From a virus, in UHGV virus genome UHGV-0193089: a stretch of DNA of 22,351 bases; one strand, written 5' to 3'. The notes below the pieces were generated by a model, which was not told the origin of the DNA, made no database searches, and worked only from the letters and a program-made list of their open reading frames with translations. Shown here piece by piece: positions 5,125 through 19,497 of this stretch (position 1 is its first letter; each line of letters begins with the position of its first letter). The position numbers and the translations under genes are program-made.

Positions 5125-5775
5125 TTAAGGAAGGTTTGCTAGCTTGGCATCAACGACAACGCCAATGATTTTACAGTTCCCATTGATTTCAATCATTGGG
5201 TATTGTGGATTGAGTGGTTTCAGGAATTTTCTACCGGCATCAATAACTAACTTTTTGAATGTCGCCTCGTTTTCCCCTTCAAGTTTGGCGACTACCAGCT
5301 TTCCATTACGTGGTTCGACTTCTGGGTCGACGAGAATAATCATCCCCTCAGGAATACTCAGTCCTGCCGGGGCAGTCATTGAATCGCCTTTAACGTCGAG
5401 CCAAAAAGAGTCTTCAGAACAATCTACCGTTGTGTCGTACCAGTTATCTATTGCACGCCTATGATATGGCTCTACAGCTTCCATCCAACATCCTGCGCTT
5501 ACCCAACTAATTAGAGGATACGAACCTCTTGGATCATGCCTGCTGTGATAGGCAATGTTTGAAAGACTATCCTCTCCTTTCAATAGGTAATCAGGGGAGC
5601 ACTGCAAAGCCTTGGCTAAGGCCAATAGGTTTTCGCCATTGGGCTCAGTTTCAGATCGCTCCCATTGGGAAATAGCAACATTAGACACGCCAACCATCTT
5701 GCCAAGGGCAGCCTGCCTAATCTTGAGTTCTTTTCTGCGAGCGCGAATACGCTCACCCATCAGTTGTGTATTCAT
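5125..5775 (-). CDS. c2: prophage repressor, P22 C2 type (HTH N-domain, LexA-like self-cleaving C-domain)
   Basis: 216 aa; MNTQLMGERIRARRKELKIRQAALGKMVGVSNVAISQWERSETEPNGENLLALAKALQCSPDYLL... matches P22 C2 from memory over its whole length. Confidence 0.95.
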   Translation of the reverse strand: MNTQLMGERIRARRKELKIRQAALGKMVGVSNVAISQWERSETEPNGENLLALAKALQCSPDYLLKGEDSLSNIAYHSRHDPRGSYPLISWVSAGCWMEAVEPYHRRAIDNWYDTTVDCSEDSFWLDVKGDSMTAPAGLSIPEGMIILVDPEVEPRNGKLVVAKLEGENEATFKKLVIDAGRKFLKPLNPQYPMIEINGNCKIIGVVVDAKLANLP

Positions 5776-11542: not shown

Positions 11543-12185
11543 TGGCAGCAAATACCGAAATATTTGGGTAGTTGGCGATCTGCACGGATGCTACACGAAC
11601 ATGATGAAAAAACTGGAGACGATAGGATTCGACACCAAAAAAGACCTGCTTATCTCGGTTGGCGATTTGGTTGATCGCGGTACAGAGAACGTCGAATGTA
11701 TGGAATTAATCACATTCCCCTGGTTCAGAGCTGTACGTGGAAACCATGAGCAAATGATGATTGATGGCTTATCAGAGCGTGGAAACGTTAATCACTGGCT
11801 GCTTAATGGCGGTGGCTGGTTCTTTAATCTCGATTACGACAAAGAAATTCTGGCTAAAGCTCTTGCCCATAAAGCAGAAGAACTTCCGTTAATCATCGAA
11901 CTGGTGAGCAAAGGTAAAAAATATGTCATCTGCCACGCCGATTATCCTTGTGACGAATACGAATTTGGAAAGCCAGTTGATCCTCAGCAGGTAATCTGGA
12001 ACCGCGAACGAATCAGTAACTCACAAGACGGGATCGTGAAAGAAATCAAAGGCGCGGACACGTTCATCTTTGGTCATACGCCAGCAGTGAAACCACTTAA
12101 ATTTGCCAACCAAATGTATATCGATACCGGCGCAGTGTTCTGCGGAAACCTCACATTGATTCAGGTACAGGGAGAAGGCGCATGA
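11520..12185 (+). CDS. Ser/Thr protein phosphatase (lambda PPase type, calcineurin-like metallophosphatase)
   Basis: Met26 of track ORF; GDLHGCY, GDLVDRG and GNHE metallophosphatase motifs; matches the lambda 221-aa phosphatase from memory. Confidence 0.9.
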
Positions 12186-12805
12186 GACTCGAAAGCGTAG
12201 CTAAATTTCATTCGCCAAAAAGCCCGATGATGAGCGACTCACCACGGGCCACGGCTTCTGACTCTCTTTCCGGTACTGATGTGATGGCTGCTATGGGGAT
12301 GGCGCAATCACAAGCCGGATTCGGAATGGCTGCATTCTGCGGTAAGCATGAACTCAGCCAGAACGACAAACAAAAGGCTATCAACTATCTGATGCAATTT
12401 GCACACAAGGTATCGGGGAAATACCGTGGCGTGGCAAAGCTTGAAGGAAATACTAAGGCAAAGGTACTGCAAGTGCTCGCAACATTCGCTTATGCGGATT
12501 ATTGCCGTAGTGCCGCTACGCCGGGCGCAAGGTGCAGAGATTGCCACGGTACAGGCCGTGCGGTAGATATAGCAAAAACAGAGCAGTGGGGGAGAGTTGT
12601 TGAGAAAGAGTGCGGAAGATGCAAAGGCGTCGGCTATTCCAGGATGCCAGCAAGCGCCGCATATCGCGCTGTAACGATGCTAATCCCAAACCTTACCCAA
12701 CCCACCTGGTCACGCACTGTTAAGCCGCTGTATGACGCTCTGGTGGTGCAATGCCACAAAGAAGAGTCAATCGCAGACAACATTTTGAATGCGGTCACAC
12801 GTTAG
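12182..12805 (+). CDS. Q: late-gene antiterminator Q (lambda type)
   Basis: 207 aa; [27 protein letters not shown]... and the CRDCHGTG...CGRCKG zinc motif match lambda Q as recalled; followed by a pR'-like promoter. Confidence 0.92.
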
Positions 12806-13238: not shown

Positions 13239-13562
13239 ATGAAGATGCCAGAAAAAAATGACCTGTTAGCCGCCATTCTCGCGGCAAAGGAACAAGGCAT
13301 CGGGGCAATCCTTGCGTTTGCAATGGCGTACCTTCGCGGCAGATATAATGGCGGTGCGTTTACAAAAACAGTAATCGACGCAACGATGTGCGCCATTATC
13401 GCCTGGTTCATTCGTGACCTTCTCGACTTCGCCGGACTAAGTAGCAATCTCGCTTATATAACGAGCGTGTTCATCGGCTACATCGGTACTGACTCGATTG
13501 GTTCGCTTATCAAACGCTTCGCTGCTAAAAAAGCCGGAGTAGAAGATGGTGGAAATCAATAA
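13239..13562 (+). CDS. S: holin S (class I), dual-start MKM motif
   Basis: 107 aa; [36 protein letters not shown]... matches lambda S as recalled; Met1/Met3 antiholin/holin starts. Confidence 0.95.
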
Positions 13563-14022
13563 TCAACGTAAGGCGTTCCTCGATATGCTGGCATGGTCAG
13601 AGGGAACTGATAACGGACGGCAGAAAACCAGAAATCATGGTTATGACGTCATTGTAGGAGGAGAGCTATTCACTGATTACTCCGATCACCCTCGCAAACT
13701 TGTCACGCTAAACCCCAAACTCAAATCAACAGCCGCCGGACGCTATCAGCTTCTTTCCCGTTGGTGGGATGCTTACCGTAAACAGCTTGGACTGAAAGAT
13801 TTCTCTCCGAAAAGTCAGGACGCTGTAGCTCTGCAGCAGATTAAAGAGCGTGGTGCTTTACCGATGATTGACCGCGGCAGTATTCGTCAGGCAATCGACC
13901 GTTGCAGCAATATCTGGGCGTCGTTACCTGGTGCAGGTTACGGTCAGTATGAACATAAAATCGGTGACCTGATTGCCCGATTTAAAAAAGCTGGTGGGGT
14001 AGTAAATGAAGCTGAGATATAA
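13546..14022 (+). CDS. R: endolysin R (lytic transglycosylase)
   Basis: 158 aa; [49 protein letters not shown]... matches lambda R as recalled. Confidence 0.95.
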
Positions 14023-14398
14023 GCTGGTTATTGTTGCCTTCGTTGTTACCGTCATTGGTTCCTTCATCTGGTCTGCTGGGCATTACTACAGCAAATATCA
14101 GCACGAAAAGGAGCGTGCTGATGAGGCTGTACGAAATGCTGAATCAGCAACTGCCATTACCCGTAACGTTCTGCAATCACTGCAAATCATCAATACAGTT
14201 ATAGAGGCTAACCAGCATGCAAAAGAGCAGATCGCACTGGACGCATCGGGAGCCTCGGCTGATATCCGGGTTGCTGTTGCGAATGATGATTGCACTAATC
14301 GCCCTGTCCCTGCTGGCGCAGTTAAGCGGCTGCAACAATTCGCGAACGGTCTACGTCAAAGTGCCGGTAGTCCCGTTACCGGCCAGCCTGACGGCTGA
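14006..14398 (+). CDS. Rz: i-spanin (Rz-like): N-terminal TM helix plus coiled-coil periplasmic domain
   Basis: 130 aa directly after R; hydrophobic LVIVAFVVTVIGSFIW segment then a charged helical region; contains the start of an out-of-frame lipoprotein ORF. Confidence 0.8.
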   Translation: MKLRYKLVIVAFVVTVIGSFIWSAGHYYSKYQHEKERADEAVRNAESATAITRNVLQSLQIINTVIEANQHAKEQIALDASGASADIRVAVANDDCTNRPVPAGAVKRLQQFANGLRQSAGSPVTGQPDG

Positions 14399-14540
14399 CA
14401 CCCCGCAACCGGAAATCCCTGACAACCTGACGTGGGGCCAGAGCCTAGATTTAAACGTCAGTCTCCTATCAGCGCTTGGGCAGTGCAACCGGGATAAGGC
14501 AGATATTAGGCAAGCTGTAAAGAAACAAGCGGGCCAATAA
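14283..14540 (+). CDS. Rz1: o-spanin (Rz1-like outer-membrane lipoprotein)
   Basis: +1-frame ORF starting inside Rz; signal peptide MMIALIALSLLAQLSGC with lipobox LSGC; Pro-rich mature part. Start uncertain (track ORF begins at 14217). Confidence 0.65.
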   Translation: MMIALIALSLLAQLSGCNNSRTVYVKVPVVPLPASLTADTPQPEIPDNLTWGQSLDLNVSLLSALGQCNRDKADIRQAVKKQAGQ

Positions 14541-14546
14541 GCCCGC
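14529..14546 (-). terminator. candidate terminator hairpin for the antisense moron transcript
   Basis: GCGGGC/GCCCGC 6-bp stem with a 6-nt loop containing the Rz1 stop; on the minus strand followed by UUGUUUCU; sits 21 nt past the ClpP-like stop. Confidence 0.35.
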
Positions 14547-14567
14547 ACTTATGGAGGATTCAAAATG

Positions 14568-15248
14568 TTACAGAACCCACCACCTGATCGAATCTGTGGG
14601 TATGGTTGCAGCCTCGACATTCTGGATCATACCCAACTCGGTGGCCCTTCCCGGATCAATGATGGTTGCAGAAGTGATCAAATTAGCCCAGTCAATTTGC
14701 TCATCTGGGGCTACAGCGAGAGCCTCGATATTCATCACCTGCACAAATCTTTGCAAGTCGTCATCCAGACATGCCGCCCATTCCCTAAGCCTGAGGTGAT
14801 CTGCTTGTGGGGCGGCAAATCCCCAATGTAAAGGATGTAATAAAAATCGCGAGAGAGGATTAGCAAACCGCTCAGATCCAGCCATGAAAATAACATTTGC
14901 TATAGATTCCACGTTACTAAGGTTATGTGTCTTCACCTTTACAGGAAGAGACTTAAGAAAGTTGTATGCGGTAAAACCTGCAACGGTATCTCCACCTTTA
15001 CTAGAGATGTAAATCCTGATCTCAGAGGCTGGTTGGTTAGGGCTTGATATCGCTTTGAGGCAAACATCCATAAGGCTGGATACAGAAGCAACTGTCACAT
15101 CTGTCATGAAGTGTACGGTATGGATCATTTCAGTTTCCCAGAGATATGCCGCAATTGGCATTTTCATAATGCACATAAAGTGAAAGGTTTTCTGCGTAAA
15201 CCCGGATGAAATAATTTCATGAAGTAAGGCATTACAGAAGCCCTTCAT
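14568..15248 (-). CDS. ClpP-fold (S14/S49-like) serine peptidase homolog encoded antisense to the late operon
   Basis: 226-aa track ORF; by-eye alignment to ClpP: IRIYISSKGGDTVAGF vs IYLYINSPGG..TAG, and AGSERFANPLSRFLLHP vs [20 protein letters not shown]; candidate Ser (VESIA), His (LLHPL), Asp (QIDWA). No clear SD at 15248; true start may be Met25-30. Confidence 0.75.
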   Translation of the reverse strand: MKGFCNALLHEIISSGFTQKTFHFMCIMKMPIAAYLWETEMIHTVHFMTDVTVASVSSLMDVCLKAISSPNQPASEIRIYISSKGGDTVAGFTAYNFLKSLPVKVKTHNLSNVESIANVIFMAGSERFANPLSRFLLHPLHWGFAAPQADHLRLREWAACLDDDLQRFVQVMNIEALAVAPDEQIDWANLITSATIIDPGRATELGMIQNVEAATIPTDSIRWWVL

Positions 15249-15590
15249 TGAGGGGCTTCGATAATGAAACCGGAATTTATTCTGGGTAACCAGTTACGGC
15301 AGTACAGCGAAACAACCCAAGCCAGTAAGTGGGGAAATAACACTGGCAGCCACTGAAAGATGAACCTCCTGCCTTATGGCAAAAAAGATTCTTTGTGGTG
15401 GCGGACTGATGGAAAGACATCGGTTATTGCAGAGACCATTCAATGAGTGGTCTCGACAATGGCTTATACCCTACACGGGATAACTTAACTGATATCCCCA
15501 CAAGCGGATAAAGAGATTCTCAATGTCAGGAATCTACTTTTAGTCCTAGTAATGATGAACTAGATATCAGCTGAGTCGCTTGGGTGGTGA

Positions 15591-15827
15591 TTACGATTCT
15601 GCTTCAAACTCAGAAATTAGTTGATGAACACGTTCAGTATATGATGGGTTAGAACCTAGAAACTCTTCCACTGTCTGAATGGTTTCATCACCCTCCCATT
15701 CAAAATGGCTCACAGGTGACGAATGACCAGCCCTGACTTGGTAGGAGCCATTGTCCAATTTGTCCAGGAATATATAAGTTTCATTATCATGACCTGTATT
15801 TCGGTAAAAAATTTGCTTTGAGTTCAT
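15591..15827 (-). CDS. small acidic hypothetical protein (78 aa)
   Basis: Track ORF; ATG at 15827-15825 with GAGGAT SD 8 nt upstream; AT-rich like the neighbouring moron; start only 24 bp from the divergent terS ATG. Confidence 0.45.
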   Translation of the reverse strand: MNSKQIFYRNTGHDNETYIFLDKLDNGSYQVRAGHSSPVSHFEWEGDETIQTVEEFLGSNPSYTERVHQLISEFEAES

Positions 15828-15851
15828 TAAAGAAATCCTCTAGAGAAAACT

Positions 15852-16403
15852 ATGGCACTCACCGACAAACAAGAGATGTTCTGTCGCGAGTACCTCATCG
15901 ATTTAAACGCCACACAAGCGGCTATTCGGGCGGGGTACAGCGCAAAGACAGCTAACCGTACCGCATCCGAAAACATGTCAAAACCTGACATCCAATTCAG
16001 AATCGCCGAACTGAAAGCGCAACGCAATGATCTTGTTGGTATTAATGCAGAATATGTGCTTAATCGCCTTATTGAAATCGACCAGATGGATGTGCTCGAC
16101 ATTCTCCTGCAAAACGGTGAGCTAAAGCCCATTAAAGACTGGCCTAAGGTATGGCGCACAACGCTATCAGGAATGGATGTCGTGGAGATGGTATCCGCAG
16201 ATAGTGCTGCTCTCCTGAAGAAAATCAAATGGCCTGATAAGGTTAAAAACCTTGAGTTGCTTGGGCGTCATGTTTCTGTTCAGGCGTTTAAAGACAACGT
16301 CAAAAATGAAGTGACTGGCGCTGATGGAGGACCAGTCAGAACAGAAATTACCAACTTAACGCCGGAGCAGGCTGCAGAGGCGTATAGAAAAATGATGGGC
16401 TAA
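15852..16403 (+). CDS. terminase small subunit (Terminase_2/P27-type)
   Basis: 183 aa; [34 protein letters not shown]... is the characteristic N-terminus of this TerS family as recalled. Confidence 0.85.
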
Positions 16404-18028: not shown

Positions 18029-19497
18029 TGGCACGAAACAAACAAGCCACGCGGCGAACGGCACAGGCCACCGCTGATGGATATGAGAACTTTGTCGCCC
18101 GCGTGGGGATGCAGACGCCTAACCAGCACTCAGCATCGACCTACCGGGCTAACTTCACCAGCCGCAACCGCATGCTGGTGGAATGGTCCTATCGTTCGTC
18201 CTGGATCATCGGCGAAGCGGTCGACGCTATCCCGGATGATATGACCCGCAAAGGCATTCGCATCACTTCGGAAATTGATGCAAAAGATCGCGGCATTCTC
18301 GAATCACAACTTGATGAGTTGCAGATCTGGGATGCGCTGAACGACGTGCTGAAATGGTCTCGCCTCTACGGCGGCGCGGTCGGCTTCATCATGATCGAGG
18401 GGCAGGCACCAATGACCCCGCTGCGGCTCGAAACCATTGGAGAAGGCAAGTTTAAGGGCATTCTCCCGCTCGACCGCTGGATGATTAACCCGGCCCTGAC
18501 CCGCCGCATTAAAGAGATGGGGCCAGATCTCGGCAAACCTGAGTTTTACGACGTGGTGACCACTGCAACGGGCATCCCGGCTTGGCGCATCCATCACAGC
18601 CGCCTGATTCGCTTCGACGGGGTGACGCTGCCATTCCAGCAGAAGATGACCGAAAACGAATGGGGAATGTCGGTTGTAGAGCGTATCTGGGATCGGCTTA
18701 CTGCGTTCGACAGCGCCACTGTCGGCGCGGCGCAGCTGGTCTACAAAGCGCATTTGCGTACCTACAGCGTGGAGAAGCTACGCGAGCTTATCGCACTTGG
18801 TGGTCCTGCGTATGAAGCGTTGCTGAAGAATATCGACCTGATTCGACAGTTCCAGAGCAATGAAGGCATGACGCTCATGGACTCGCGGGATAAGTTTGAA
18901 ACCCATCAGTACAGCTTCAGTGGTCTGGATGACATTCTTTCGCAGTTTGCAGAACAGATTAGCGGCGCTGTTGGTATTCCACTGGTGCGGTTGTTCGGAC
19001 AGTCCCCGAAAGGATTTTCTACCGGTGATGCAGATCTTGCCAACTATTACGACCGGGTGAGCTCATTGCAGGAGCGCCGCTTACGGATGCCGATGCGCCG
19101 GATACTGGACATTATGCACCGCTCGGAACTCGGTAAGCCGCTGCCGGACGATTTCACGTTTGAGTTTAACCCGCTCTGGCAAATGTCTGATGTCGATCGC
19201 TCAACGGTGGCGTTAAACACTACCAACGCAATCAGTACGGCGCTGGGTGATGGTCTGATGACACTGAAAGCCGCTATGACCGATTTGCGCGAAAATTCTG
19301 ACGTAACCGGCATCGGGGCATCCATTACCGACGAGGACATAGAGAATGCCGAAGACGAAGCGCCGCCAGGCATCGGCGAACTTGGCGACAAACCGCCAGA
19401 GTCGCCAGGCGGAGATCCGATATCGAACGAGCCTACGGCAGATAGCGCGGGCGGTCGGGGATATCGTAAATGGGCGCTACGATGGTTCAAACGATAG
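18028..19497 (+). CDS. portal protein
   Basis: 489 aa following TerL with a TGATG junction; acidic disordered C-terminus; call by position and size. Confidence 0.8.
   Translation: MARNKQATRRTAQATADGYENFVARVGMQTPNQHSASTYRANFTSRNRMLVEWSYRSSWIIGEAVDAIPDDMTRKGIRITSEIDAKDRGILESQLDELQIWDALNDVLKWSRLYGGAVGFIMIEGQAPMTPLRLETIGEGKFKGILPLDRWMINPALTRRIKEMGPDLGKPEFYDVVTTATGIPAWRIHHSRLIRFDGVTLPFQQKMTENEWGMSVVERIWDRLTAFDSATVGAAQLVYKAHLRTYSVEKLRELIALGGPAYEALLKNIDLIRQFQSNEGMTLMDSRDKFETHQYSFSGLDDILSQFAEQISGAVGIPLVRLFGQSPKGFSTGDADLANYYDRVSSLQERRLRMPMRRILDIMHRSELGKPLPDDFTFEFNPLWQMSDVDRSTVALNTTNAISTALGDGLMTLKAAMTDLRENSDVTGIGASITDEDIENAEDEAPPGIGELGDKPPESPGGDPISNEPTADSAGGRGYRKWALRWFKR

Follow-up and report, generated by a model that had tools for sequence, protein, structure and literature searches.

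A short ClpP-fold peptidase gene in the antisense slot between Rz1 and terS as a probable accessory gene of enterobacterial prophages

Introduction

The stability of host stress regulators, and of the phage proteins for replication, repression and transposition, is controlled by ClpXP and ClpAP. In lambdoid phages, the gap between Rz and the packaging genes is the position of lambda bor, a gene that late transcription crosses in antisense. Here, we examine a clpP-like gene located in that gap, on the minus strand between Rz1 and terS of the virus genome UHGV-0193089, of which a stretch of 22,351 nucleotides was analysed at its full length and is referred to as the window. A preliminary description of this DNA had placed the gene antisense in the bor slot and read it as encoding a stand-alone peptidase of the ClpP fold, and the present analysis supports that reading.

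The closest relative with a described function is ClpP1 of Pseudomonas plecoglossicida (PpClpP1; Protein Data Bank (PDB) entry 9UXT), an N-terminally truncated ClpP that forms a homo-tetradecamer with an axial pore of 42.7 Å and has low peptidase activity (PLoS Pathog 2026, PMC12900304). Its catalytic "triad" is Ser-His-Pro, of which Ser and His are essential and the third residue is not decisive (PMC12900304). PpClpP1 alone degrades neither casein nor GFP-ssrA and does not pull down ClpX, and together with the housekeeping ClpP2 it forms a stable hetero-tetradecamer, which is a more active peptidase and slightly boosts ClpX-dependent degradation (PMC12900304).

Results

The open reading frame (ORF) of 226 codons at 14568..15248 on the minus strand, between Rz1 and terS, was confirmed, and the similarity of its product to ClpP, which had been proposed from an alignment by eye, was borne out by profile search. 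The match to Pfam CLP_protease (PF00574) scored 46 bits against a gathering threshold of 20.2 (E=7e-12) and was restricted to the central ~80 residues (profile positions 43-123 of 182). The best sequence match in the PDB was 9UXT, a 183-amino acid (aa) "Clp protease" (E=4e-30, ORF residues 43-225), and the canonical ClpPs ranked behind it with E values of ~1e-6. Structure prediction likewise gave a ClpP-like fold, the AlphaFold model reaching a predicted local distance difference test score (pLDDT) of 90.7 with an alignment of 32 homologues, and superposition of this model by Foldseek resulted in a template modelling (TM) score of 0.89 on 9UXT and of 0.70-0.75 on the ClpPs of S. aureus and E. 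coli. All NCBIfam scores for ClpP equivalogs fell far short of their cut-offs (TIGR00493, 25.6 vs 308.6; PRK00277, 34.9 vs 249), and neither Pfam nor NCBIfam gave a Peptidase_S49 match at E<=1. When 1.84 billion cluster representatives were searched with a profile, 51 matched at E<=1e-30 and 1781 at the looser limit of E<=1e-10, the top-scoring ones being nearly all 180-195 aa in length, and these numbers and lengths indicate that the clade of short ClpPs is broad and single-domain. With similarity to 9UXT over the full length and relatives of 178-190 aa, the protein matches the short, N-terminally truncated type of ClpP, and its sequence fits a prophage-borne enterobacterial branch of this PpClpP1-type clade, in which PpClpP1 is so far the sole member to have been studied. 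The gene is under strong purifying selection, with a pairwise ratio of nonsynonymous to synonymous substitution rates (dN/dS) of ~0.08 where dS is unsaturated.

Although the ORF stands as described, the protein length of 226 aa does not, because the most likely product is one of 186 aa that starts at Met41 (15128). The homologues are 178-187 aa long and begin with M(I/L)HT(V/I)HF, which is the equivalent of Met41, and the 40 codons upstream are not conserved as protein in copies with 78-79% identity. These codons have a GC content of 0.38 and hold a palindrome and half of an inverted repeat, hairpin I1, within the loop of which the first ATG of the 226-codon ORF (15248-15246) is located. Judged from these features, the first 40 codons are probably not translated. 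The RefSeq start for a 100%-identical copy is Met28.

The catalytic residues were mapped against E. coli ClpP by hhalign and MAFFT, which were concordant, and are numbered from Met41. Ser75 (in VESIAN) aligned to ClpP Ser97 and His98 (in LLHP) to ClpP His122, both being invariant in 32 family members, and the oxyanion Gly is conserved. The position of ClpP Asp171 is occupied by Ala154 (within TSATII), so that, of the triad thought to be retained, Ser and His hold and Asp does not. This column contains Ala, Ser, Thr or Gly in the close family and A, G, P, S, E, D and others, mostly non-acidic residues, in 32 representatives of the wider short clade, in which Ser and His are also invariant. Moreover, the protein begins at residue 40 of the E. 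coli ClpP precursor, and mature residues 1-25, which make up the axial loops, are missing. At the cleft positions that we take, from the ClpP literature, to dock the IGF/IGL loops of ClpX and ClpA, F49, Y60, F82, I90, L114 and L189 are replaced in the family by K/Q, R/N/K, S, H, N and E/A, respectively. Thus, the protein has the Pfam signature and the fold of ClpP and departs from canonical ClpP in its triad, gate, docking surface and equivalog scores. The direct pairing with, or poisoning of, host Clp ATPases that the preliminary description had put forward is unlikely, because the axial loops are gone, the six positions of the docking cleft are polar and PpClpP1 does not pull down ClpX (PMC12900304).

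An aromatic tail, (R/N)WWV, was observed at the C terminus, where it is conserved in the family with W183 and W184 near-invariant, and is predicted to form a terminal beta-strand. PpClpP1 has QWSV at this place, and canonical ClpP is without such a tail, which may substitute for structural contacts lost through the N-terminal truncation.

To place the gene in its genomic setting, we surveyed 103 loci encoding proteins 45-100% identical to the window protein. The gene was found convergent with Rz/Rz1 in 28 loci (class A, 78-100% identity), directly 3' of an 82-aa ribbon-helix-helix gene and divergent from arc and an antirepressor gene in 43 loci (class B, 56-57% identity), and at the end of Mu-like tail modules, beside the tail-fibre invertase and near the prophage end, in 11 loci (class C, 52-53% identity), the other 21 loci (45-89% identity) representing various late-gene sites, such as one upstream of a holin gene. 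The nearest ORFs of at least 120 aa were on the opposite strand on both sides in 78 of the 99 loci having both flanks, and the opposite strand held 91% of the large-ORF coding DNA within 4 kb of the clpP-like genes. Inside a late-strand head module, the position of a prohead protease, the gene was found in none of the 103 loci, in agreement with the earlier notion that it is unrelated to the head module. In class B, the ribbon-helix-helix and clpP-like genes overlap by stop and start codons (TAATG), an arrangement of translational coupling, and the immI modules concerned are located in P22-like phages and some lambda-like tail regions. The best solved relative of the ribbon-helix-helix protein is the Mnt repressor of P22 (1MNT, E=2e-6), the C-terminal part included.

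A conserved partner gene was found in neither the post-lysis nor the Mu-tail context, and distant relatives (28-44% identity, from uncultivated bacteria) had no conserved neighbour. The same-strand upstream ORFs were rejected as partners, being antisense shadows of terS and other genes. The pair of ribbon-helix-helix and ClpP-like proteins was also considered as a toxin-antitoxin system and rejected, because the homology of the former to Mnt extends over the DNA-binding part as well as the C-terminal part, and because the gene for it is missing from two of the three contexts. Among 5426 complete E. coli genomes, class A was present in 7, class B in 128 and class C in at least 26, giving a total of at least 161 (~3%). 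All of these copies are chromosomal and annotated as "ATP-dependent Clp protease proteolytic subunit". Variants of the gene are also common in Klebsiella.

The separate acquisition of the gene, suggested earlier on the basis of base composition, was substantiated by comparison of related prophages. One prophage of E. coli (strain ECCTRSRTH03, locus L001), whose lambda-type packaging/head module (gpW, portal and an S49 peptidase) differs from that of the window, shares with the window at 98.9% identity a 1063-bp cassette made up of the clpP-like gene, Rz1 and the 3' half of Rz. The clpP-like gene is likewise antisense between Rz1 and the terminase genes there. In Klebsiella, a 99%-identical gene (cluster of 206 member sequences) occupies the same site and precedes at least three types of terS (Terminase_2, DUF2280 and PhageMetallopep+DUF2280). 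The E. coli prophage that is most similar overall to the window has Rha and HNH genes in the slot and no clpP-like gene. The AT-richness of the 5' part is present but modest, the GC content being 0.43 compared with 0.50 in the lysis cassette and 0.52 in the terminase genes, and GC is equally low beside the gene, at 0.43 in the adjacent intergenic DNA and 0.39 in a neighbouring 78-codon ORF (orf78). As a side observation, L001 carries IS1A (18204-18901 of that locus) directly upstream of the lysis genes, and its early region seems rearranged. The L001 prophage is probably defective.

The clpP-like gene has an intrinsic terminator of its own, which extends into the 3' end of the oppositely encoded Rz1, and a perfect palindrome, occurring once in the window, lies upstream of its start as a candidate operator (Table 1). 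This palindrome is retained (CATGAGAATATTTCATG) in loci with a 79%-identical protein despite diverged upstream flanks, and is followed in those loci by a good sigma-70-like promoter (TTGAAT-N16/17-TATATA/TATAAA). Hairpin I1 marks a junction, at which the cassette shared with L001 ends (15266) and an HK97-like non-coding segment begins (15221).

Table 1. Coordinates of the clpP-like gene, its RNA and DNA elements, and surrounding features in the window.
Feature	Position	Strand	Remarks
S24/HTH (helix-turn-helix) CI-type repressor	5125-5775	minus
Q antiterminator	12182-12805
Lambda-type holin	13239-13562		lysis cassette
Endolysin	13546-14022		lysis cassette
Rz-like DUF2570 protein	14006-14398		lysis cassette
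Mobile cassette	14204..15266		3' half of Rz, Rz1 and clpP-like gene; blastn vs L001
Rz1	14217-14540	plus	embedded in Rz
Intrinsic terminator of clpP-like gene	14519..14546	minus	GCGGGC-UUAUUG-GCCCGC then UUGUUUCUUU; terminator scan; hairpin 14546-14529, U-tract to 14519; fold -14.7 kcal/mol, z -2.5
clpP-like coding sequence, most probable	14568..15128	minus	186 aa + stop; N-terminally truncated ClpP-family peptidase
C-terminal aromatic tail	14571-14588	minus
Ala154 codon	14669-14667	minus
His98 codon	14837-14835	minus
Ser75 codon	14906-14904	minus
In-frame 40-codon upstream extension	15129..15248	minus	probably 5' untranslated and promoter DNA
Palindrome, candidate operator	15206..15220		15 bp, ATGAAAT-T-ATTTCAT; 78 bp upstream of Met41 start
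HK97-like non-coding segment	15221-15512
Hairpin I1	15230..15266	plus	inverted repeat; fold -21 kcal/mol, z -6.9; upstream edge of cassette
Terminator-like hairpin with U-rich tail	15365-15386	minus	between orf78 and clpP-like gene; -12.6 kcal/mol, z -3.8
Second hairpin	15426-15460	plus	paralogous to I1; -24 kcal/mol, z -6.1
orf78	15591-15827	minus	78 codons; start 24 bp from terS start
terS	15852-16403	plus	Pfam Terminase_2, E=3e-39

The window has the content of a lambdoid prophage, with an Erf recombinase and a DnaB-type helicase encoded. TerS is followed by TerL, a portal_3 protein, a Mu-F-like protein and a DUF2213 protein, in this order, and the head module made up of the last three is without any ClpP-type protease.

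Several further elements were observed around the gene. The non-coding segment of ~290 bp that includes hairpin I1 also precedes the packaging genes of HK97-like phages and phage-like plasmids, with a conservation of ~89-98%, and contains a second hairpin paralogous to I1 (~37 nt each). The inner 10-bp stems of the two differ at three pairs, all three of which are compensatory. The paired hairpins may act as an RNA element of the late transcript or as a site bound by a protein, and Rfam gave no match at the gathering threshold for the whole window or at E<=1 for 14400-15900. Between the segment and terS, orf78 has the same orientation as the clpP-like gene and is opposite in strand to the adjacent terS. 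It had no match in Pfam, PHROG, NCBIfam or PADLOC and no tblastn match among 50,697 phage records, and two IMG/VR contigs (L062 and L064) have it in an identical context. It possibly represents another orphan accessory gene, or else is non-coding. We considered orf78 as the first gene of a two-gene operon with the clpP-like gene and rejected this, since it has no homologues, is absent from the other copies of the cassette and is separated from the clpP-like gene by the terminator-like hairpin, which suggests that the two are separate transcription units.

The slot 3' of the mnt-like gene in the class B type of island was observed to be variable, holding the clpP-like gene, a 69-aa ORF (L144, 3283-3492) or nothing. 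By reading of the sequence, a membrane protein of ~189 aa (L142, 1830-2399) and a toxin-antitoxin-like pair of 149 and 164 aa (L144, 2209-3082; also L002, 5590-6467) are encoded near this slot. Some P22-like prophages encode, between arc and the antirepressor gene of their immI modules, a 60-aa protein that is a stand-alone homologue of the N-terminal zinc-binding domain of ClpX (L050, 2506-2688, minus strand; L141-L146, 4001-4180), its best PDB matches being 1OVX and 2DS5 (E ~6e-6). This protein might serve as a decoy in the recognition of adaptors or substrates by ClpX. The gene for this homologue is in no enterobacterial phage record of the GenBank phage collection, and among seven IMG/VR loci that have it, the clpP-like gene is present in one and missing in five, so that a link between the two genes was rejected as weak.

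Discussion

The evidence presented here makes it very probable that the clpP-like gene is a functional accessory gene of the short ClpP type. Its recurrent antisense placement, the purifying selection on it and its own terminator indicate an accessory prophage gene, or "moron", and not a prohead protease. In line with this, it is inserted antisense among late genes, absent from the closest prophage and present in unrelated ones. Expression in the lysogen is plausible, given this accessory-gene anatomy and the 43 relatives that are translationally coupled to a gene for an Mnt-like repressor. P22 lysogens produce Mnt as their maintenance repressor, and the operon fusion of these relatives with the mnt-like gene points, on that ground, to expression from the prophage. 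From the gene order and the lambda paradigm, Q-dependent late transcription would have to cross the gene in antisense.

We therefore propose, as the full explanation that best accounts for the locus and with a probability of about 0.5, that the gene encodes a gateless Ser75/His98 peptidase, is a moron expressed from the prophage, and acts through a mixed tetradecamer with host ClpP. The gene would be transcribed independently from the resident prophage and be silenced by convergent late transcription during lytic growth. Its product would assemble into heptameric rings of the ClpP type that cannot dock ClpX or ClpA, and such a ring could stack on a ring of host ClpP to form a mixed tetradecamer, which would alter the output of host ClpXP/ClpAP. 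The altered output might be to the benefit of the prophage, for example, where the proteins turned over are repressors, antirepressors, replication proteins or those of an incoming phage. Taken by itself, the action through a hetero-complex with host ClpP is a tentative proposal, less likely than not and made by analogy.

Several observations weigh against this proposal. A sigma-70-like promoter was not found in the window copy by a consensus scan of 14400-16000, and manual inspection gave weak candidates only (TTTACG-N17-TATGTG). The oligomerisation-sensor residues beside the canonical Asp are not conserved. PpClpP1 is only 33% identical to the window protein and may not predict its choice of partner, and a PpClpP1-related copy other than PpClpP1 itself (P0075), on a short contig, adjoins tig and not phage genes. 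Furthermore, PpClpP1 leaves casein undegraded in the absence of ClpX, with or without ClpP2 (PMC12900304), so that a mixed complex may bring little advantage.

Host ClpP may also not be involved, the protein being an autonomous, ATP-independent open-pore peptidase that serves as an effector of superinfection exclusion or abortive infection, possibly by degrading incoming-phage proteins that are unfolded or disordered, for instance ejection proteins or small early proteins. The stand-alone nature of the gene, which has no conserved partner after the lysis genes or in the Mu-like tails, is consistent with such an effector, as are the conserved catalytic dyad under strong selection, the open pore of PpClpP1 (42.7 Å; PMC12900304) and the islands of P22-like phages that place the gene beside candidate exclusion genes, namely, the toxin-antitoxin-like pair and the membrane protein read from the sequence. 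However, the protein matched no defence model in PADLOC-DB v2 at E<=1, no paper tying ClpP-like proteins to phage defence was found among open-access papers and preprints, and PpClpP1 alone is weakly active and does not degrade casein (PMC12900304). We consider this solo action rather unlikely, and stacking on host ClpP is ranked slightly above it because that is the only behaviour demonstrated for a homologue. A role as a decoy, in which the subunit poisons host ClpP or titrates the Clp ATPases and, by inhibiting proteolysis, may protect phage proteins such as the O-like replication protein, is improbable. The loss of the canonical Asp and the axial loops would suit a decoy, mixed-assembly ClpP paralogues that alter Clp function are known in Listeria, Pseudomonas and Streptomyces, and a few phages have the stand-alone homologue of the ClpX zinc-binding domain in the class B immI modules. 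The invariance of Ser and His down to 27% identity nevertheless argues for retained catalysis, the cleft for the ATPase loops is not conserved, and the gene for the ClpX domain occurs mostly apart from the clpP-like gene. PpClpP1, moreover, does not bind ClpX, and its mixed complex with ClpP2 is more, not less, active (PMC12900304).

That the gene is a displaced or inverted prohead protease of the ClpP type, or the decaying remnant of one, is suggested by its best PHROG match, phrog_94 'head maturation protease' (E=1e-22), by weak matches to NCBIfam Clp_rel_HeadMat (NF045542) and by one phage record in which a homologue is labelled as a head maturation protease. The NF045542 score of 47.5 bits is, however, far under the cut-off of 120, the protein ends at the ClpP core without a C-terminal scaffold or capsid-targeting extension, and the gene accompanies at least three unrelated types of head module, never lying in a late-strand one in our survey. 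The dN/dS of ~0.08 excludes decay. We regard this origin as highly improbable.

The assignment of the fold is not new, because public pipelines already label the protein as a Clp protease subunit. Among open-access papers and preprints, we found no paper on prophage-borne short ClpPs, on the three recurrent antisense slots or on the coupling to an Mnt-like gene, and the literature on phage-encoded ClpP, immI and Clp, and lysogenic conversion held nothing relevant beyond the PpClpP1 paper. A ClpP paralogue delivered by a prophage would tune the host Clp machinery directly, or else it would represent an unrecognised single-gene exclusion function. In its widest form, which we hold to be doubtful, the proposal would mean that temperate enteric phages reprogram host ClpXP/ClpAP from the prophage by means of a gateless, ATPase-blind ClpP ring, as a device of immunity, exclusion or induction timing, and that some immI modules oppose it with a ClpX zinc-domain decoy from the antirepressor operon. 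If true, such reprogramming would be a previously unrecognised lysogenic conversion that acts on the regulated proteolysis of the host. The genomic contexts described here also place the recently solved short "ClpP1" clade in an ecological setting, as cargo of mobile elements. If the protein is only a weak housekeeping peptidase, the gene would be an ordinary accessory gene whose annotation as an "ATP-dependent Clp protease proteolytic subunit" is slightly wrong.

Compared with known systems, the window protein shares with canonical ClpP (E. coli, MEROPS S14) the fold, the Ser, the His and the oxyanion Gly. In canonical ClpP, the axial gate and the contact with the pore-2 loops of ClpX are provided by mature residues 1-25, and Asp171 and a hydrophobic cleft are present, whereas the window protein lacks residues 1-25 and has Ala in place of Asp171 and six polar positions in the cleft, and its gene, unlike the canonical clpP gene, is not beside clpX. 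Listeria ClpP1/2, P. aeruginosa ClpP1/2 and the Streptomyces ClpP variants are comparable in that the window protein may likewise be a second ClpP-type subunit working only with the housekeeping ClpP, but they are chromosomal and full-length, with the N-terminal loops present, and to our knowledge none of these accessory paralogues is delivered by a prophage. The phage head-maturation proteases (NF045542, PHROG 94) are also phage-borne proteins of the ClpP fold without the canonical N-terminal gate. The window gene differs from theirs in lying outside the head module on the other strand, in lacking the scaffold or delta-domain extension and in travelling independently of the type of head module. 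With lambda bor and the lambdoid morons of the gap between Rz and the packaging genes, it has in common the antisense slot 3' of Rz/Rz1, a terminator of its own and variable presence among related phages, although bor encodes an outer-membrane lipoprotein that is unrelated in sequence to this cytoplasmic ClpP-fold peptidase. The likeness to PpClpP1 covers the full length (33% identity, TM score 0.89), the length class of ~183-186 aa, the truncation that removes the axial loops, the Ser and His with a non-acidic third residue (Pro in PpClpP1, Ala in the window protein) and the motifs THNL..VES and F(L)LHP.HW. The oligomeric state, activity and hetero-complex are established for PpClpP1 only, which is described as a chromosomal paralogue with no reported prophage context, whereas the window gene and those of its relatives that exceed 45% identity belong to the accessory genes of prophages.

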